From Candidatus Saccharimonadota bacterium (lineage in GTDB: Bacteria > Patescibacteriota > Saccharimonadia > Saccharimonadales > UBA4665), in the NCBI GenBank assembly GCA_036743655.1, contig DAINPB010000004.1, forward strand, positions 15,788 to 79,787: a stretch of 64,000 bases of DNA, written 5' to 3'. Of this stretch, positions 737-8,611 are shown one piece after another; the stretch's first letter is position 1; each line of letters opens with the position of its first letter. Below the pieces are notes generated by a model that saw nothing but the letters and a program-made list of their open reading frames with translations, was not told the DNA's origin and made no database searches. A program made the position numbers and the translations under genes.

Positions 737-2429
<1,693 letters not shown>

Positions 2430-2453
2430 AGATCACTCCTTTCTCATCAAAAT

Positions 2454-2918
2454 TCATACCTGCACCTCCGCGCCGCCCGAAGTTTCGGCTAATCTCTTCT
2501 TTATAATATCGATATCGTTGCCAAACACGACAATTTCCACGCCTTTGACAACTTGGCCTACTTCGGTTCGTTCATCCACGAGCTCAATCGGCTGCGTTCG
2601 GTCTTCGCCCAATTCGTAATAGCCGACATCCTCCAGCGCCCACTGGCTAAACACCGGTTTTCCTAGCTTTGCCACAGCATTAACGCCGTTCAGAATGACG
2701 CGGTCCCAGCCTGCAAAATCCTTAACATTCATAGCGCCCACCAGCAGACCACCAATGTCGCGCATACTTTCTTCGTACCTAGTGGTTGGCTGATGCGTGA
2801 AGTCTTCTACATTAAGCCCATTATGTTCCAAAGCATCCCACCAAAATGTAGCCAAACAAAGACGTGAAATAGCAGCATCAGGAGAGCGAGAGGTAATTAG
2901 CCCGATCTTTTCACTCAT
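2454..2918 (-). CDS. hypothetical protein embedded in the atp operon, ending in a gamma-subunit-like tail (LAETSGGAEVQV)
   Basis: 154-aa ORF. Its ATG (2918-2916) overlaps the stop of the upstream ORF as ATGA. The C-terminus mimics the AtpG C-terminus LAEISGGAEALNG. Confidence 0.6.
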   Translation of the reverse strand: MSEKIGLITSRSPDAAISRLCLATFWWDALEHNGLNVEDFTHQPTTRYEESMRDIGGLLVGAMNVKDFAGWDRVILNGVNAVAKLGKPVFSQWALEDVGYYELGEDRTQPIELVDERTEVGQVVKGVEIVVFGNDIDIIKKRLAETSGGAEVQV

Positions 2919-3127
2919 CCGTTCAATGCCTCCGCGCCACTCATTCGTGGATCATTATTAATCAAATCCTGAGCAACCGGCTCCAGATACCACAGACTGT
3001 CTGGATGACAGCCGACATTGATGGCGATAGAACCCAGCATATCTTCGACGGTAACAACTTCGGGTTGGAAATCAAATAACGCTTCGACTAGATAATCGGC
3101 TGGCTCGAGGGACTTTATATCAACCAT
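2915..3127 (-). CDS. small hypothetical protein embedded in the atp operon, ending in a gamma-subunit-like tail (SGAEALNG)
   Basis: The ORF track gives 2915..3202 (95 aa). I prefer the internal ATG at 3127, which overlaps the atpG stop (AATGGTTGA) and gives 70 aa (MVDIKSLEPADYL...). The last 8 residues are identical to the AtpG C-terminus apart from one missing Gly. Confidence 0.5.
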   Translation of the reverse strand: MVDIKSLEPADYLVEALFDFQPEVVTVEDMLGSIAINVGCHPDSLWYLEPVAQDLINNDPRMSGAEALNG

Positions 3128-3986
3128 TGAGGGCCTCCGCACCACCTGAAATTTCGGCCAGCTGCTGGGTGATGTCCGCTTGACGTGCGGTGTTGAGCTC
3201 AAGCGTGTAGTCTTTGATCAGGTCGTTGGCATTGTCGGTGGCATTCTTGGTGGCCACCATGCGCATGGCGTGTTCGGAGGCTAGGCTTTCTAGCACCGCT
3301 TGCCAGATTTGAGCCTCGACGAGACGTGTGGTGACCTGTTCGATAACGGTTTCGACATCGGGCTCAAAGTTGCTGATAGCTGGTGCATCTGCATCGGCTG
3401 CTGGTGCCGGAGCGGGCAAGAGCTGTAAGCTCTGCGATTCCTGCACAATAGTAGATTTGAAAACAGTGTAGAGCACCTGGACATCGTCGACAGCGCCTGA
3501 CTCATACTGCTCGATAACGGTGTTCAGGATTGGTCGGATGTCATTGGCGGTCGGGTGATCACCGAATGGCTGATAGGCCGCTAACAGATCAACATCGTGC
3601 AGGCGACGGACGAATTGAGCGCCTTTGCTGCCAATGGTAATCACATGACTCTTAACCTTATCGTCGCGGTCACGGCGCAGGCCGGTGGTCAGCAGCTTCA
3701 GCGTATTGGCATTATAGGCACCTGCTAGGCCGGTGTTACTGGTCACAATGATGTAGAGGCGATTCTTGATCGGGCGTTTGCGGAATAACGGCTGCTGCTC
3801 AACCTCACCAATAGCGTTGAGCCGCTTCAGTAGGTCATAGGCCAAATCGCGGTAATCACGACTGCGCTGCGCATACTCCTGGGCACGCCGCAGCTTACTA
3901 GCCGAAACCAGCTCCATAGCCTTAGTAATCTGTCGCGTACTGCGAACAGAGCTAATACGGCGTTTGAGGACAATGGTGCTAGCCAC
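3120..3986 (-). CDS. atpG: F0F1 ATP synthase subunit gamma
   Basis: 288 aa with a GTG start. Typical gamma N-terminus (RRISSVRSTRQITKAMELVSASKLRRAQ) and C-terminal helix (ADITQQLAEISGGAEALNG). Confidence 0.93.
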   Translation of the reverse strand: MASTIVLKRRISSVRSTRQITKAMELVSASKLRRAQEYAQRSRDYRDLAYDLLKRLNAIGEVEQQPLFRKRPIKNRLYIIVTSNTGLAGAYNANTLKLLTTGLRRDRDDKVKSHVITIGSKGAQFVRRLHDVDLLAAYQPFGDHPTANDIRPILNTVIEQYESGAVDDVQVLYTVFKSTIVQESQSLQLLPAPAPAADADAPAISNFEPDVETVIEQVTTRLVEAQIWQAVLESLASEHAMRMVATKNATDNANDLIKDYTLELNTARQADITQQLAEISGGAEALNG

Positions 3987-4479
3987 GTCGCTCCTTTGTA
4001 GCCTGTACTTCTTGGCTGTATGTCCGGATAGCCTCCAACTCCCTCATTGCCATCGCGAAGGTTAGCGGTGGCGTCATGCCTGCTGGCCACTGGGCATCAG
4101 GAAGTTCAAGCGCCCTCATGAGCGGCCGAAACCATCCACTAACAGCGAGCTGAGCTACCTTATAAGCATACTGCGGCGCGGAATCGAAGGGCATATTTAT
4201 GCCCTCATCCACGGTCGTCTCCAGTCTTTTATTGGCAAATGTAGCTGGAAGCGATTCATGATCACTTCGAAACTTCAGGGCGATATACGAGCAGATATCA
4301 CCGGCCAGCCAGTCATTTTTTTTGAGCCGTTCTTTCAAGGCTATGATTTGCTCATCCGTTAGCCGTTCTGGATCATCTTCGTTCAGCGGCGCTAGCACGA
4401 ATTCTGACGTCCACCAGGCAAGACTGTCAGGCGTATTTCCGTCTCTTATACTTATAACCGCTGGTAATATTTCACTCAT
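3979..4479 (-). CDS. hypothetical protein inserted between atpA and atpG (166 aa)
   Basis: ORF track. Same strand as the operon. Its TAG overlaps the atpG GTG start by 8 nt and its 3' end contains the atpG SD (AAGGAG). No domain recognised. Confidence 0.55.
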   Translation of the reverse strand: MSEILPAVISIRDGNTPDSLAWWTSEFVLAPLNEDDPERLTDEQIIALKERLKKNDWLAGDICSYIALKFRSDHESLPATFANKRLETTVDEGINMPFDSAPQYAYKVAQLAVSGWFRPLMRALELPDAQWPAGMTPPLTFAMAMRELEAIRTYSQEVQATKERRG

Positions 4480-4506
4480 AGCTAAACTCTTGAGCTTTCT
4501 CCCACC

Positions 4507-6057
4507 TTATTGCGCTACCTTAGGTTTGGCCGTCTTGTAGGTCTCAGCGATAGCTTTGGCGACCTGGAGGACGGTTTCGTTCTGGGGATCGGTGGGTTTA
4601 TCACCGGTGTTGAGCTCTTCTGTTAGCTTGGCGTGCTTGCTCTTGAGCTCGCGGTGCAGGGCTTCTTCGGCGGGTTTGATCTTCTCTATTGGTACTTCGT
4701 CGAACGCGCCTTGGGTGGCGGCATACAGGCTGGTGTACATTTCCCAAACTGAGTAAGGGCTGTACTGGTGCTGCTTGAGCAGTTCGGTCAGGCGTTGGCC
4801 GCGCTCGATGGTGTGACGAGTTTCCGGATCCAGATCAGTCGAGAATTGGCTGAAAGCCGCCAGCTCACGGAACTGCGCTAGACTCAACTTCAAACCACCG
4901 CCGGCGGCCTTGATGGCCTTGGTCTGGGCAGCACCACCCACACGCGACACCGACAGACCAACCGAAATAGCCGGGCGAATACCCTGGTAGAACAGATTGG
5001 TTTCGAGGAAAATCTGACCATCGGTAATCGAAATAACGTTGGTTGGAATGTATGCGCTGATGTCGCCAGCCTGCGTCTCAATAATCGGCAGCGCGGTCAG
5101 TGAACCAGCACCGAGCTTATCGCTCAGCTTAGCAGCACGTTCCAGCAAACGAGAGTGCAGGTAGAAAACATCGCCTGGATAAGCTTCGCGGCCTGGTGGG
5201 CGGCGCAGCAATAGTGACATTTGACGATAGGCCGCAGCGTGCTTGGTCAAGTCATCGTAAATGATGAGGGCATGCTGCTTGTTGTCACGGAAGTACTCAC
5301 CCATGGCGCAGCCAGCATAGGGCGCTAGGAAGAGCAGGGCGGCTGGATCAGCGGGGCTGGTAGCGATGATGATGGTTTGATCCATGACGCCTTCGCGCTT
5401 CAGACGCTCTTGGAGGGCTGCAATCTTGGATAGCTTCTGGCCAATGGCTACGTAGACGTTGATGACGCCGGTTTTCTGGCGGGCCTGGTTGACCATGGTA
5501 TCGACGGCAATGGCCGTTTTGCCGGTCTGGCGGTCACCGATGATCAATTCACGCTGGCCGCGGCCGATTGGCACGATGGCGTCAATGGCAGTCAAACCGG
5601 TCATCAACGGCTCATGCACACTCTTACGAGCCAATACATCGGGGGCTTGGCGCTCGACACGGCTGGTGAGCTTGGCCTTGATAGGATCGCCGCCGTCCAA
5701 GGGATTACCCAGCGGGTCGACTACACGGCCGACTAGCTCTGGGCCAACGGGGACTTCGAGTACTTTGCCGCTGAGGCGAACGGTGGCACCGGCTTTAACT
5801 TCGGTGTCTTCACCGAGTAGCACGGCGCCGATTTCGTCCTCGCCGAGGCTGAGGGCAAAGGCAGTGACTTTTTGGCCGTTAACACCGTCGATTTCGAGCA
5901 TTTCGTTATAACCGGCGGCGCTGAGGCCGTAAATCCAGGCCACGCCGTCACCGACGCGGGTAACTACGCCGACGCTTTCAATCTCCGGTCGCTGTTTGAG
6001 CTCGGCAATAGCCGCCCGGATATCATCTGATAATTCTGTAATTGATAGTTCTGGCAC
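4507..6057 (-). CDS. atpA: F0F1 ATP synthase subunit alpha
   Basis: 516 aa with Walker A GDRQTGKT. Full-length F1-alpha-like sequence. Confidence 0.97.
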
Positions 6058-6464
6058 TAAAAATCCTTTCCTGAAGCGGTTAACTGCTTGAACTTGTTTA
6101 ATTTGGCTTCGATGCTAAGGTCGAGCTGCTGGTTTGGTAGGCTTAGCTGCACACCCCCGATGACTGCCGGGTCGATTGCCTCAGTGATAGCTATCTGTTT
6201 GGCCTCAGGATAAAGCTTCCTTATCTGGCTCACGATGTCGTGCTTGACAGCCGCCGTCAGTGGATAAGCGCTGGAGGCGATCACTTCGACGTAACCGGCT
6301 TCGGCCCAGTCGGCCTGGACATCGCGCAGAACAGAGTCCAGCTCGTTGACACGGCGTTCGCTGAGCAGGTAGGCGGCGATTTCTTGGCTGAAGCGCTTGG
6401 AAACACCACTCTTCAGGGTTTTGTCAGCAATAGCGCTGGCGATTTTGGTGCGGGGCTGCTTCAT
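6057..6464 (-). CDS. atpH: F0F1 ATP synthase subunit delta (OSCP), short form
   Basis: 135-aa ORF between atpF and atpA, overlapping both neighbours by 1-4 nt. Assigned from operon position and a delta-like C-terminal part. Confidence 0.8.
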
Positions 6465-6997
6465 GCCGCTTGCCGCTCCTTGAGGGCGCGTTCGATTAAG
6501 GCAGCGTCCTTCTTGGCGTCAACTTTCTCGTCGATAACTGCTTCGGTAACATCGGAGATTAAGCCTACTAGTTCGCCTTCTAACTGCTTGCGAGCACGAG
6601 CCGTGTCTTGGACTATCCGCGACTCGGCGTCTTTTAAGATACCGGTGGCTTTGTCGCGAGCCTTGTCTTCGGCTTCACGGATGGTCTGACGACCGGTATC
6701 TTGGGCGCTGGCGATAATGCTGTCGGCTTCTTGTCGGGTTTCTTGCAAGGTTTTGGCAACCTTGGCTTCCAGCTCGGTTTTTTCGCGCTGCATCTGTTCG
6801 CCAAGCTTCACTCCCTGGTCAATCGCCTCGCGCCGCTCGCGCAACACCTTAATAATCGGCCCGAACGCATAGCGCCGCAGCACCAGGTAAGCCAAGATAA
6901 AGGTAATCAGCTGAATAACAAACGCCTTACCATCAACGCCAAGGGCGCCAAGGCCAGACGAACTATCGCCGAATTGTGTAAGTAGAGTATGTGTCAT
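6461..6997 (-). CDS. atpF: F0F1 ATP synthase subunit b
   Basis: 178 aa with one N-terminal TM helix (FVIQLITFILAYLVL) followed by a long charged helix. Operon position fits. Confidence 0.85.
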   Translation of the reverse strand: MTHTLLTQFGDSSSGLGALGVDGKAFVIQLITFILAYLVLRRYAFGPIIKVLRERREAIDQGVKLGEQMQREKTELEAKVAKTLQETRQEADSIIASAQDTGRQTIREAEDKARDKATGILKDAESRIVQDTARARKQLEGELVGLISDVTEAVIDEKVDAKKDAALIERALKERQAA

Positions 6998-7149
6998 GCT
7001 GTTGTGTTGCTTAGCTCCCGGTACAGGGACGTTTGTAGATGCGTGCAGTTTGGCGAAATGTCGAGCACCGCAAAGGAGCCGTACTCAGTGGTACGGTGAG
7101 TGCGGAGCGCAGAGATTACGTCAAAATGTGCCATATACAAACGTTCCTC

Positions 7150-7377
7150 CTATTTAACGATGAAGATTGATGCGAAGGCTAATAGACCAAATAACTCTAC
7201 AATAGCCACAAAGATCAGGGCTTGTCCCAAGAATTTAGCCGCCTCCGGATTACGCCCCACGGCCTGCAAGTAGTTGCCGCCGATCAGACCAATGCCAATG
7301 CCCGGCCCGATAAAACCGCCACCGATCATGAGCCCCTTACCAATAATTGCTGTGTTAACTGCGTCTGCGATTACCAT
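7150..7377 (-). CDS. atpE: F0F1 ATP synthase subunit c
   Basis: 75-aa hairpin proteolipid with a Gly-rich helix 1 (GGGFIGPGIGIGLIGG), the RNPE loop and a carboxylate in helix 2 (VAIVELFGL). Confidence 0.92.
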   Translation of the reverse strand: MVIADAVNTAIIGKGLMIGGGFIGPGIGIGLIGGNYLQAVGRNPEAAKFLGQALIFVAIVELFGLLAFASIFIVK

Positions 7378-7433: not shown

Positions 7434-8297
7434 TTAAGCCTGCCCATGCACACTCCCGGTTGTTGGTACCCCTATTGTTTCAGGAACATCATCTTCGGTC
7501 AAGTCCTCGTCGGCAGCGTGTTCCTCCGCATGGTTAACCGCGATAGCCAAGTACATGGTGGCCAAGATAGTGAAGATATACGCCTGCAAGGCCGCTACCA
7601 GTATCTCTAACAGAGTAAACGGCAGAGCAGTCAACGGCGCAATAACGTGACCCAGATACGAGAAGACGGCAATTACAATCTCACCAATCGTTATATTCAG
7701 GAAAAGTCGCAGCGACAAGCTGAGCACCCGAGTTAGGTCAGTAAACATTTCGAGCAGCCCGATGACGAAATACAGAGGATTCTTAGGACTCCCCACGAAG
7801 AAATGACGCAAATACTTCAGCGGGCCACCAGCCTCCCTGATAGAAGCGCCGTAGACCAATGTCATCGTAACCACCCCGAGCGCCAGCGTGCCGTTGAGAT
7901 CACCGGTGAACGGTCGTAGCAGCGGGAAACCATGCCCTCGGAAGCCTTCGCCGACAATCGGTAATAGCCCGAGCCAGTTATTGAAGAGAATAAAGAAAAA
8001 CAGTGTCACGAAGAAAGGCACATACTTGCGTCCCACTTCCTTATTATCAAAAGCGTTCTCTACCAGATTAGTGATGAAATCAACGCCGACTTCGACAACC
8101 TGCACAAAACCGCCTTTGGGCTTAACCGTCACCCGGCGCGCCGTCCAAACAAACACTATGATAATAAACAGGGCGCAAGCCCAACCGTACAGTATAGAGT
8201 TGGTAACAGTAAAACCGCCCAGTTGCAGCACATGAGCCGGCGCCACATGAACTGTCGGGCCGCTGTCGGCTAGGGTGCGTAGTACTGCACTGATCAC
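7434..8297 (-). CDS. atpB: F0F1 ATP synthase subunit a
   Basis: 287-aa polytopic protein with the conserved Arg region (LSLSLRLFLNITIGE). GTG start overlaps the upstream ORF. Confidence 0.92.
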   Translation of the reverse strand: MISAVLRTLADSGPTVHVAPAHVLQLGGFTVTNSILYGWACALFIIIVFVWTARRVTVKPKGGFVQVVEVGVDFITNLVENAFDNKEVGRKYVPFFVTLFFFILFNNWLGLLPIVGEGFRGHGFPLLRPFTGDLNGTLALGVVTMTLVYGASIREAGGPLKYLRHFFVGSPKNPLYFVIGLLEMFTDLTRVLSLSLRLFLNITIGEIVIAVFSYLGHVIAPLTALPFTLLEILVAALQAYIFTILATMYLAIAVNHAEEHAADEDLTEDDVPETIGVPTTGSVHGQA

Positions 8298-8611
8298 GAG
8301 CGATGTCCTTTGCTACTAGGTGGTAAAGGCGGGCTGAACAGCTGTAACTGTCGCCAAACAACGGCGCCCATACCGACCATGGCCATCACGAAACCGACAA
8401 TTGTCAGAGCGGGCAGGGTATTAAGTTTCTTGTCCAGCTCAAAGCCGCCAATAATCGGTACCAGGACTACAATCGCTAATTGCCAGCTCATATTAAAAGC
8501 TGCTGCAAAGAACTCATTCCGCGGGTCTTTGCCACGTCCCACCGCTGTATCTGGCTTCGTTTCTCCACCGTTTGGCGAGGGCGTCTTGCTGGGCGCTATC
8601 GTCTTCTTCAT
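8294..8611 (-). CDS. AtpI/AtpZ-like small membrane protein (first gene of the atp operon)
   Basis: The ORF track gives 8294..8620 with a TTG start. The ATG at 8611 (MKKTIAPS...) lies 8 nt after a TATACT -10 box. Two TM helices. Position upstream of atpB is typical of AtpI/AtpZ. Confidence 0.55.
   Translation of the reverse strand: MKKTIAPSKTPSPNGGETKPDTAVGRGKDPRNEFFAAAFNMSWQLAIVVLVPIIGGFELDKKLNTLPALTIVGFVMAMVGMGAVVWRQLQLFSPPLPPSSKGHRS

Follow-up and report, generated by a model that had tools for sequence, protein, structure and literature searches.

Copies of the AtpG tail in the ATP synthase operon of a Saccharibacteria bacterium are probably scars of successive cassette insertions

Why would the C-terminal peptide of a core ATP synthase subunit reappear at the ends of two small neighboring ORFs, spelled in different codons? 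The question is raised by a 64,000-nucleotide stretch of DNA (the window) from a Saccharimonadales (Saccharibacteria) bacterium, in which an F1Fo operon is present on the minus strand. The earlier note on this DNA had described gamma-like tails in three successive genes; this layout was confirmed on the minus strand, where the two ORFs that follow atpG end in SGAEALNG and LAETSGGAEVQV, each directly before its stop codon. Sequence comparisons make it probable, though well short of certain, that the tail copies are scars of successive cassette insertions that carry the ribosome-binding site of the next gene and are not mimics of the gamma subunit. The features concerned are as follows.

737..2134, minus strand: atpD (F1 beta subunit), from its ORF and tblastn, 72-94% to related loci
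2118..2429, minus strand: ORF103, orphan cassette ORF with its own Shine-Dalgarno sequence AAAGGAG (2442-2436)
2422..2457, minus strand: mini-ORF of 11 codons, read from the sequence; its ATG overlaps the ORF154 stop (ATGA)
2454..2918, minus strand: ORF154, member of a small uncharacterized protein family, with a native body to ..KKRL and then AETSGGAEVQV
2454..2492, minus strand: tail C, putative relic of an atpG 3' end (LAETSGGAEVQV and stop), ~30-39 nt, from its weight-matrix score
2915..2940, minus strand: tail B, putative atpG 3'-end relic with the stop codon included, 26 nt, found as direct repeat D1
2915..3127, minus strand: ORF70, orphan cassette ORF, given 70 aa by gene callers
3120..3161, minus strand: tail A, the functional gamma C-terminus (LAEISGGAEALNG and stop), with GGAGG at 3138-3134
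3120..3986, minus strand: atpG (F1 gamma subunit), complete at 288 aa with its own tail kept (Pfam PF00231, E=3.6e-84)
3979..4479, minus strand: ORF166, cassette in the atpA-atpG gap, from clustering; its stop lies within atpG codons 2-3
4507..6057, minus strand: atpA (F1 alpha subunit), from its ORF and tblastn against related loci

The AtpG protein of the window is 91-44% identical to those of 80 Saccharibacteria loci and ends in ..QQLAEISGGAEALNG. Only atpG gives a full-length match to the PF00231 profile, and ORF70 and ORF154 do not match it even at E<=1; thus, atpG is the sole member of the gamma family here. The 985 nt inserted between atpG and atpD contain the ORFs of 70, 154, and 103 aa. 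The ATG of ORF70 (3127) falls within the AAT GGT TGA that closes atpG, and its product ends in ..PRMSGAEALNG at 2915, the final eight residues being SGAEALNG. ORF154 starts at ATG 2918, in an ATGA overlap with the ORF70 stop, and ends in ..KRLAETSGGAEVQV at 2454. The mini-ORF that follows stops 3 nt within ORF103 and could represent what is left of a lost cassette, or else a coupling ORF; the 3' end of ORF103 in turn overlaps the start of atpD by 17 nt. The arrangement is not an assembly artefact: it is found again in two further contigs, one from Logan (100% identical) and one from ENA (a single mismatch over 1081 nt), and the identity common to the tails, only ~8 nt, is too short to mis-join assembly graphs.

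Tails A and B (3120-3145 and 2915-2940) form a 26-nt repeat that includes the stop codon, is 77% identical, and is the best direct repeat in 2000-4600, its longest identical run being ~8 nt. At the peptide level the identity to the gamma tail is 8/8 for ORF70 and 8/9 over LAExSGGAE for ORF154. The codon comparison in the earlier note is correct for ORF70, where six of the eight codons differ and all differences are synonymous; for LAExSGGAE the differences are there, but they number 6 in 27 nt and not the 7 that had been counted. That all eight residues are kept in tail B is also what selection on the peptide would be expected to produce. In tail C the body of ORF154 joins the relic between TTAG and CCGAA, and the "L" of LAE probably is native to ORF154, judging from family members, in which ..RL is followed by a few more residues before the stop. 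At its peptide end tail C reads ..AEVQV in place of ..AEALNG, and its Shine-Dalgarno part is intact.

These matches are not due to chance. When each tail was locally aligned with that of the upstream gene, ORF154 scored 42 and ORF70 scored 35, above the maximum of 33 in 1620 shuffles; among the other gap ORFs of the 80 loci the same score never exceeded 27. The atpG/ORF154 pair also ranks first of the 27,031 pairs of ORF C-termini in the window. A DNA weight matrix made from the atpG tails of other species gave tail C a score of 19.1 (maximum of 500 shuffles, 4.3), and its 21-nt version gave tail B a score of 20.0 (shuffle maximum, 15.3). Two further candidates were rejected. A fourth relic in ORF103 (SGQRAEAF, near 2387, from repeat D11) scored -7.4 with the weight matrix, within the shuffle range, and a mirror-image "atpD head" relic at the start of ORF103 (AAAGGAGTGAT..ATGG..GCAGTAAC) reached a best local score of 26, which is not significant (shuffle mean 22.5, maximum 33). 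A protein HMM of the gamma tail, run on three-frame translations of the gaps, returned the window tails and a weak match in L031 at the top, although the method is too insensitive for motifs this short.

What the three tails have in common beyond the peptide is a translation signal. The tail codons GCG GAG GC contain GGAGG, a Shine-Dalgarno sequence, and all three window tails retain GCGGAGG 6-10 nt upstream of an ATG: the GGAGG of tail A lies 6 nt upstream of the ORF70 start at 3127, that of tail B (2933-2929) 10 nt upstream of the ORF154 start at 2918, and that of tail C (2469-2465) 7 nt upstream of the ATG at 2457. Where a cassette comes after atpG, its start normally lies on or within the atpG stop codon. 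Of the 33 loci with a cassette that starts at the atpG stop, 29 have GGAGG, versus 6 of the 46 without one (Fisher p=1e-11, a value that ignores phylogenetic non-independence). Because the Shine-Dalgarno sequence of the cassette comes from gamma-tail codons, the last ~25-40 nt of atpG are the translation start region of the cassette.

Cassettes at this position are common among relatives. Our comparison set consisted of 80 species-level loci and the window, out of at least 557 atpG loci, and an insert was counted if a gap held at least 120 nt. The atpG-atpD gap carries an insert in 35 of 79 related species, in the form of small unrelated ORFs that are mostly orphans. Inserts were also found in the atpA-atpG gap (18/80) and in the atpD-atpC gap (15 of ~73); the F-H and H-A gaps had none of at least 120 nt in the 80 loci and the window. 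The ORFs occupy the gaps, nearly all are singletons by BLASTP, and DNA homology to relatives ends at the gene borders. Even the nearest relative (L001, AtpG 91% identical) has cassettes unrelated to those of the window. Members of the ORF166 family occupy the same place in L001, L004, L011, and L016 with only 26-33% amino acid identity, whereas the genes that flank them are ~90% identical. In cassettes with homologues pN is lower than pS, and GC1 exceeds GC2 in all four cassette ORFs of the window; by these sequence criteria, the cassettes are genes. ORF70 matches only itself among 5.8e9 proteins, and ORF103 likewise has only a self match in the protein database. Searches for the function of ORF70, ORF154, ORF103, and ORF166 yielded nothing usable in Pfam, PHROGs, PADLOC, NCBIfam, PDB sequence profiles, or viral contigs, and the AlphaFold2 model of ORF154, built from a three-sequence alignment, had a pLDDT of 45.8. 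We found no paper in the literature on inserts in the atp operon of Saccharibacteria.

ORF154 is the one cassette of the insert whose original ending can be compared. Its homologue P0003 (42% identical) ends in ..FGNDIDVIRNRLG, that is, ..RNRLG, while P0004 ends in ..DRLSSASN and P0006 in ..ARLQSA, so that all three close with ..RL and 1-6 further residues. When the three-sequence family alignment was used as the query, L087 was the only locus added. The gamma-like tail is absent from P0003, P0004, P0006, and the L087 gene, and hence does not belong to the ORF154 family. Both P0004 and the gene in L087 lie outside the atp operon. P0003, in L083, sits directly between atpG, with which it has an ATGA overlap, and atpD; this is the context that tail B recreates before ORF154. 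ORF147 of L010 (..RRLSAVSIGAA) was considered as a carrier of a decayed gamma tail and rejected, the family alignment showing the native ..RL-plus ending.

If the tails are relics, from which atpG did they come? Between the window and its nearest relative pS is 0.74. Tail B matches the best atpG allele at 24/27 nt, compared with 20/27 for the atpG of the window, and tail C is closest to the L001 atpG tail, from which it differs at 3/27 nt, compared with 6/27 from the window atpG; a stretch of 27 nt is too short to assign tails to donor lineages, and the 3/27 and 24/27 are suggestive and not individually significant. Compared with the atpG end of the window itself, those of L011 and L003 fit tail B better, 29 nt being 93% identical to the L011 end. 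Together, these comparisons suggest that the tails resemble atpG alleles of other lineages at least as closely as they resemble the atpG of the window. Neither a donor allele nor a donor array was found for them. The atpG gene itself carries a related signal. The distance between the window and L001, divided by the median distance between the window and the other loci, is 0.6-0.9 along atpA, the first 600 nt of atpG, and the 5' end of atpD, versus 1.04 in the 3' part of atpG, so that the close relationship is lost only over the final ~270 nt of that gene. This loss of closeness could instead belong to the L001 lineage.

Traces of the same kind may exist elsewhere. With the window excluded, internal boundaries between cassettes resemble atpG 3' ends more than terminal boundaries do (Mann-Whitney p=0.007). 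Examples are ORF93 of L043 (..SEAIQ) and ORF155 of L042 (..GTEATR), each of which precedes a cassette with a homologue located directly after atpG in L045 or L040. These short L042 and L043 relics could be convergent Shine-Dalgarno contexts; the long, clear ones are confined to the window genome. The motif [IV]G[GC]AEAR in the cassettes of L045 and L043 was rejected as a relic, since it occupies an identical, conserved place within the two homologues and is therefore native.

The history that we propose runs as follows. Three gaps, the two that flank atpG and the one between atpD and atpC, are hotspots at which this group acquires and exchanges small, fast-evolving, mostly orphan ORFs. The array would grow stepwise, as DNA consisting of an atpG 3' end and a cassette arrives several times from other Saccharibacteria, one side joining by homology (in atpG or atpD) and the other by a join that is illegitimate or based on microhomology. 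Natural competence occurs in Saccharibacteria (PMC10633639). Every event would leave a second, non-identical copy of the atpG tail within the array, in the atpG frame and with the stop codon and overlapping start retained. Because such a relic is in frame, the upstream cassette ORF reads through it and gains a gamma-like C-terminus: ORF70 would have acquired ..SGAEALNG in this way, and the native ending of ORF154 would have given way to ..AETSGGAEVQV. That the tails differ synonymously would follow from the descent of the copies from separate atpG alleles, synonymous sites in this clade being saturated. The relic DNA would then be preserved as the Shine-Dalgarno sequence and coupled start of the next ORF, with the gamma-like peptides as by-products and not F1 ligands. 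The tails, the hotspot, the tail-less homologues, the link of the Shine-Dalgarno sequence with cassettes, and the break in relatedness toward the atpG 3' end are observed; we infer the mechanism (homology-facilitated illegitimate recombination once DNA has been taken up), the sequence of events and their direction, and the view that the peptides have no function. The downstream cassette may have brought a foreign tail with it, or the resident tail may have been displaced downstream; ORF70 and ORF103, being orphans, offer no native ends from which junction 2 could be rebuilt. In outline, this agrees with the serial cassette insertion with tail duplication put forward in the earlier note, by virtue of the insertion hotspot, the ATGA context of P0003, the match to foreign alleles, and the break in the atpG 3' part.

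Several other explanations deserve consideration. The tails might have arisen in place: within this lineage the atpG 3' end would have been duplicated in tandem or by slippage, ORFs would have arisen de novo or expanded between the copies, and a long divergence would have followed. The repeats are indeed direct and in the same frame, and the three cassettes are all orphans or nearly so. However, ORF154 stems from a pre-existing family that is also found elsewhere, tail B is nearer to the atpG ends of other species than to the window's own, and the peptide would have had to be under selection during the synonymous divergence, against which the tail-less homologues speak. We therefore regard an origin in place as unlikely. 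A broader proposal is that the hypervariable ORFs found in many Saccharibacteria in the gaps beside atpG and in the atpD-atpC gap encode F1 accessory or regulatory proteins specific to a lineage, or else factors for host interaction whose expression keeps pace with that of ATP synthase, that the atpG tail, through its internal Shine-Dalgarno sequence and start overlap, acts as a recombinase-free capture site for promoter-less genes, and that the fused tails could lend ORF70 and ORF154 of the window some added affinity for alpha3-beta3; taken as a whole, it seems to us a distinctly long shot.

The earlier note had also offered functional mimicry, in which ORF70 and ORF154 are F1-binding regulators, inhibitors, or assembly factors whose tails are selected for the gamma site in alpha3-beta3. 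On the one hand, peptide identity is high in spite of the synonymous differences, both ORFs are embedded among F1 genes and translationally coupled to them, and inserts cluster only around F1 genes. On the other hand, different allelic origin accounts for the synonymous differences, and tail C has kept its Shine-Dalgarno sequence while its peptide end diverged. None of the ~45 other atpG-atpD gap ORFs in related loci has a comparably clear gamma tail. The note itself had held that relatives of these ORFs without the tail would refute the idea, and the ORF154 homologues, inside and outside the atp operon, are of just this kind. The cassettes matched no family of F1 regulators or inhibitors (epsilon CTD, IF1, zeta). 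The gamma C-terminus acts within a long coiled coil, and 8-11 of its residues on an unrelated body make an unlikely ligand. Docking on F1 thus has little to commend it, and we hold it to be very improbable.

Equally improbable, in our view, are site-specific mobile cassettes, moved by an integron-like, integrase, or homing-endonuclease system that targets the conserved atpG tail. Insertions recur in many species at precisely one point, at or within the atpG stop codon, and in the window there is a repeat at each boundary, but the exact start position is explained by the tail Shine-Dalgarno sequence with its overlapping start. The cassettes have no recombinase or nuclease match in Pfam, NCBIfam, PHROG, or PADLOC, the boundaries carry no attC-like inverted repeats of the integron type, the boundary repeats are only 77% identical, and the multi-cassette arrays of L004, L040, and L070 include internal boundaries at which no tail copy is present. 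Finally, although the contig is metagenome-assembled and the region varies between strains, a chimera of operon strain variants is hardly credible given the two further assemblies (100% and 99.9% identical), the mere ~8 identical nt common to the tails, and ORFs that are continuous and coupled across every junction.

Successive cassette insertion, the reading that we prefer, resembles two known situations in a new setting. In Rhs, CdiA, and T6SS effector-immunity systems, C-terminal displacement yields arrays of orphan modules (Jackson 2009; Poole 2011; Kirchberger 2017, PMC5361080). There, as here, the conserved upstream gene is the homology anchor, incoming modules push residents downstream, arrays differ between close relatives, and homology-facilitated illegitimate recombination is the proposed mechanism. 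Fragments of the conserved gene lie at the boundaries of displaced modules in the window as well (tail B, 26 nt; tail C, ~30-39 nt), and the array content is variable and horizontally acquired, with unrelated cassettes in L001 and ORF154 homologues in other contexts. In contrast to those systems, the anchor here is the housekeeping gene atpG, its function fully retained, and not a toxin scaffold; the modules are orphans of 70-215 aa without a toxin or immunity signature, and none of the cassettes matched a Pfam, NCBIfam, PADLOC, or PHROG family. The displaced fragment, only 26-39 nt long, forms an in-frame extension of the cassette before it and serves the next one as Shine-Dalgarno sequence and overlapping start.

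The second likeness is to e14 and phage 21 in E. coli icd, where the insert gives a housekeeping gene a substitute 3' end and the original stays on the far side as the icdC 3' pseudogene, the copies differing mostly by synonymous changes (Hill 1989; PMC13626634). The window likewise has an intact atpG with tail A and, downstream, tails B and C. Unlike at icd, there is no integrase, prophage, or identical att core, the inserts measure 0.2-0.5 kb, and the event is serial, with two relics translated as C-termini of other ORFs. Islands at tRNA and tmRNA 3' ends, to which the earlier note had compared the locus, also duplicate the 3' end of their target and preserve its function, but they use a tyrosine integrase and identical direct repeats. 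No tyrosine or serine integrase or other recombinase match was found among the ORFs of the 985-nt insert, and the boundary repeat (77% over 26 nt) is not an identical att core; thus, the analogy is valid for the outcome and not for the machinery. Translational coupling in atp and ribosomal-protein operons similarly places Shine-Dalgarno sequences in the last codons of the upstream gene and uses ATGA or TAATG overlaps. What differs from ordinary coupling is that the state of the tail Shine-Dalgarno sequence varies with an accessory cassette, and that the tail bearing it is copied with cassettes.

The locus shows that, in the reduced genomes of Saccharibacteria, orphan genes with a fast turnover can land in an operon that ranks among the most conserved of bacteria. 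It would provide a sequence-level record of gene stacking, in which displaced gene ends are reused as translation start regions, and the link between the tail Shine-Dalgarno sequence and cassettes is a clear case of an accessory neighbor shaping the synonymous sites of a core gene. An odd signal, the same peptide in different codons, may be explained without selection on the peptide, which calls for caution in motif-based inference of function. Should the cassettes prove to act on F1 or in host interaction, this phylum, which has become amenable to genetics, would contain a new class of lineage-specific proteins linked to ATP synthase.

An F1Fo ATP-synthase operon lies on the minus strand at the start of the window and takes up its first 8.3 kb. 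It comprises the conserved atp genes and four inserted open reading frames:

7434-8297, minus, atpB
7150-7377, minus, atpE
6461-6997, minus, atpF
6057-6464, minus, atpH
4507-6057, minus, atpA
3979-4479, minus, ORF166
3120-3986, minus, atpG
2915-3127, minus, ORF70
2454-2918, minus, ORF154
2118-2429, minus, ORF103
737-2134, minus, atpD
306-734, minus, atpC

The best relatives of AtpG come from Saccharimonadales metagenome-assembled genomes (91-75% identity); thus, the window belongs to a Saccharibacteria genome. The atpE-atpF spacer is unusually long, both here (152 nt) and in the related locus L076 (143 nt), and holds a 44-48-aa ORF in each (window 6994-7140, minus; L076, 4398-4532), the two being similar by BLASTP.

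The atpG region of Saccharibacteria is a widespread hotspot of orphan cassettes, which, together with the link between synonymous sites of the atpG tail and cassette translation, we consider more interesting than the shared C-terminal tails that first drew attention to it; we found no earlier description of this hotspot in the literature. We surveyed 80 species-level loci and the window for inserts of at least 120 nt. They are present in the atpG-atpD gap of 35 of 79 loci (up to 1.2 kb, with one to four ORFs), in the atpA-atpG gap of 18 of 80 and in the atpD-atpC gap of 15 of about 73; none was detected in the atpF-atpH or atpH-atpA gaps of these loci and the window. The gaps are filled by the inserted ORFs, which usually start at or within the stop of atpG and are nearly all singletons by BLASTP. 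ORF70, ORF154 and ORF103 each matched only themselves among 5.8 billion proteins, and the cassettes had no match in Pfam, PHROG, PADLOC, NCBIfam families, PDB sequences or viral contigs. Their GC3 in the window (2118-4479) is 0.35-0.51, versus 0.58-0.66 in the atp genes. Where cassettes have homologues, pN is lower than pS; therefore, they are real, fast-evolving genes. Even L001, the nearest relative of the window, has unrelated cassettes, and DNA homology between the two ends exactly at the borders of conserved genes. The GC content of the whole window is 0.496.

Two further observations concern the atpA-atpG gap. An ORF166 family is found there in five genomes (window 3979-4479; L001, 1370-1792; L004, 6646-7008; L011, 6682-7008; L016, 4104-4493), its members merely 26-33% identical next to atpA and atpG at approximately 90%. 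Of about 17 cassettes in this gap, 9 have their stop codon 8 nt into atpG (xTG GCT AGC read as ..TAG), so that these cassettes are terminated by the conserved atpG head.

The earlier note had observed that three consecutive genes share the gamma-subunit tail in different codons, and we confirm this. AtpG ends in ..QQLAEISGGAEALNG, ORF70 in ..PRMSGAEALNG and ORF154 in ..KRLAETSGGAEVQV; as described there, ORF70 starts at ATG 3127, within AAT GGT TGA of atpG, and ORF154 at ATG 2918, with an ATGA overlap. In the LAExSGGAE stretch of ORF154, 6 of the 27 nt differ from those of atpG, rather than the 7 counted previously. When the last 25 residues of every gap ORF were aligned with the tail of the upstream gene, the scores were 42 for ORF154 and 35 for ORF70; 1620 shuffles reached 33 at most, and all other gap ORFs in the 80 related loci scored 27 or less. 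In pairwise comparison of the window's ORF C-termini (27,031 pairs), atpG/ORF154 ranks first, and a 26-nt pair (2915-2940 and 3120-3145, 77% identity) is the best direct repeat within 2000-4600. A weight matrix built on atpG tails of other species gave the tail DNA of ORF154 (2454-2492) a score of 19.1 (maximum of 500 shuffles, 4.3), and a 21-nt matrix gave that of ORF70 (2915-2940) a score of 20.0 (shuffle maximum, 15.3). The match is well beyond chance.

An exhaustive HMMER search identified three homologues of ORF154:

P0003, 146 aa, 42% identity, ends ..EIVVFGNDIDVIRNRLG
P0004, 161 aa, 43% identity, ends ..IIIDRLSSASN
P0006, 164 aa, 39% identity over the aligned stretch, ends ..ARLQSA

According to the family alignment, the native C-terminus lies a few residues beyond ..RL, and ORF154 is thus ..KKRL with 11 extra residues, AETSGGAEVQV. 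Comparison with P0003 (AGA TTA G/GA TGA) and L001 atpG (CTA G/CC GAA) places the junction at AGA TTA G/CC GAA, with TAG as microhomology. In locus L083, P0003 directly follows atpG with an ATGA overlap and precedes the Shine-Dalgarno sequence and start of atpD; atpG there ends in ..GAVEAMSS, with GGAGG upstream. The ORF70 tail, ..GGC GCG GAG GCA TTG AAC GGA TGA, recreates this exact context before ORF154. P0004 and a gene in L087 lie outside the atp operon, adjoin an LssY_C gene and lack the tail, so members of the family occur both as ordinary genes of the chromosome and as atp cassettes. Family genes outside the operon (L084, 2630-3115; L085, 2514-2999; L087, 45-374) have an LssY_C-domain gene upstream and an ORF of about 200 aa downstream. 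In P0005, a protein of 1548 aa, five stretches match residues 82-130 in the middle of ORF154 (E=8e-7), which may point to a repeat unit common to this large protein and the cassette family.

Between the window and its nearest relative, synonymous sites of atpG are saturated (pS 0.74, dN/dS 0.016), and the AtpG tail peptide is nearly invariant across the phylum; therefore, copies of different atpG alleles share the peptide and differ synonymously without selection in their new place. The ORF70 tail shares 24 of 27 nt with the end of atpG in L011 and L003, versus 20 of 27 with the window's own, and 29 nt, including the GGATGA stop context, are 93% identical to a foreign atpG end. The ORF154 tail is closest to L001 atpG (3 of 27 differences versus 6 of 27 for the window's own). 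Given such short segments, these affinities to particular lineages are suggestive only. Duplication in situ followed by de novo emergence of ORFs is improbable, because the ORF154 family existed beforehand and the ORF70 tail is nearer to foreign alleles. Taken relative to the median distance between the window and the other loci, the distance between the window and L001 stays at 0.6-0.9 in atpA, in atpG up to nt 600 and at the 5' end of atpD. Over the final ~270 nt of atpG this ratio reaches 1.04, and the nearest sequences there are those of L004 and L011. This apparent breakpoint fits the trace expected from homology-anchored import of an atpG 3' end with its cassette, in the lineage of either the window or L001. 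Elsewhere, the first cassettes of L043 (ORF93, 7864-8145, ..PRDSEAIQ) and L042 (ORF155, 7864-8331, ..PGTEATR) probably end in older, decayed gamma-tail relics, weaker than those in the window; homologues of the cassettes that follow them lie directly after atpG in L045 and L040, respectively. Internal array boundaries are more similar to atpG 3' ends than terminal ones (Mann-Whitney p=0.001; 0.007 without the window).

The gamma-tail codons GCG GAG GC contain GGAGG, and each of the three window tails keeps GCGGAGG with a workable spacing to an ATG:

3138-3134, minus, GGAGG in the atpG tail, 6-nt spacer to ATG 3127 (ORF70)
2933-2929, minus, GGAGG in the ORF70 tail, 10-nt spacer to ATG 2918 (ORF154)
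2469-2465, minus, GGAGG in the ORF154 tail, 7-nt spacer to ATG 2457 (mini-ORF)

The 11-codon mini-ORF (2422-2457, minus) connects ORF154 with ORF103: it starts with an ATGA overlap and runs 3 nt into ORF103 before stopping. It could be what is left of a deleted cassette, or an ORF for translational coupling. The ORF154 tail has an intact Shine-Dalgarno part, while its peptide end has diverged to ..AEVQV, as expected if the DNA signal, and not the peptide, is under constraint. The tail DNA thus appears to persist as the predicted ribosome-binding site of the next ORF. The earlier note's proposal that ORF70 and ORF154 mimic the gamma tail and dock on F1 is unsupported and very unlikely: P0003, P0004, P0006 and the L087 gene lack the tail, other cassettes have no clear one, and the ORF154 copy has decayed at its peptide end.

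We propose instead that cassettes are stacked by serial homology-facilitated illegitimate recombination; natural competence is known in Saccharibacteria (PMC10633639). A displaced atpG tail would remain after each event, at once in frame with atpG, closed by the atpG stop with its overlapping start, and equipped with the Shine-Dalgarno sequence for the ORF that follows. Translation of the upstream cassette would then run into the relic and give the cassette product a gamma-like end. The serial insertion at the atpG 3' end suggested earlier therefore stands in outline, without dedicated machinery. A site-specific mobile element is just as doubtful as mimicry, since no recombinase was found among the cassettes and no att or attC features at their boundaries, and some arrays have internal boundaries without tail copies. 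Assembly chimerism is negligibly probable, and the arrangement is no artefact, because two further assemblies show the identical layout (100% and 99.9% identity).

The same reasoning underlies published proposals on orphan immunity arrays at Vibrio T6SS loci and on "C-terminal displacement" at Rhs loci (PMC5361080). Insertion of e14 in icd has a parallel outcome, a replacement 3' end from the element with the displaced original kept as icdC, the differences being mainly synonymous (PMC13626634). Unlike these systems, the atpG case shows no integrase among its cassettes, no identical att core and no toxin or immunity content, and its relics are very short; besides being translated, they serve again as start regions for translation. 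By this comparison, the phenomenon appears to be a new form of two processes already known, displacement and the regeneration of 3' ends.

Across loci, GGAGG is present in the atpG tail of 29 of 33 with a cassette starting at or overlapping the atpG stop, versus 6 of 46 without one (Fisher's test, p=1e-11, ignoring phylogenetic kinship of the loci); in the latter, GAA or different Ala codons predominate. The choice between GCG GAG and GCN GAA thus varies with the cassette, and, judging from these sequences, an accessory gene appears to shape which codons a core gene uses.
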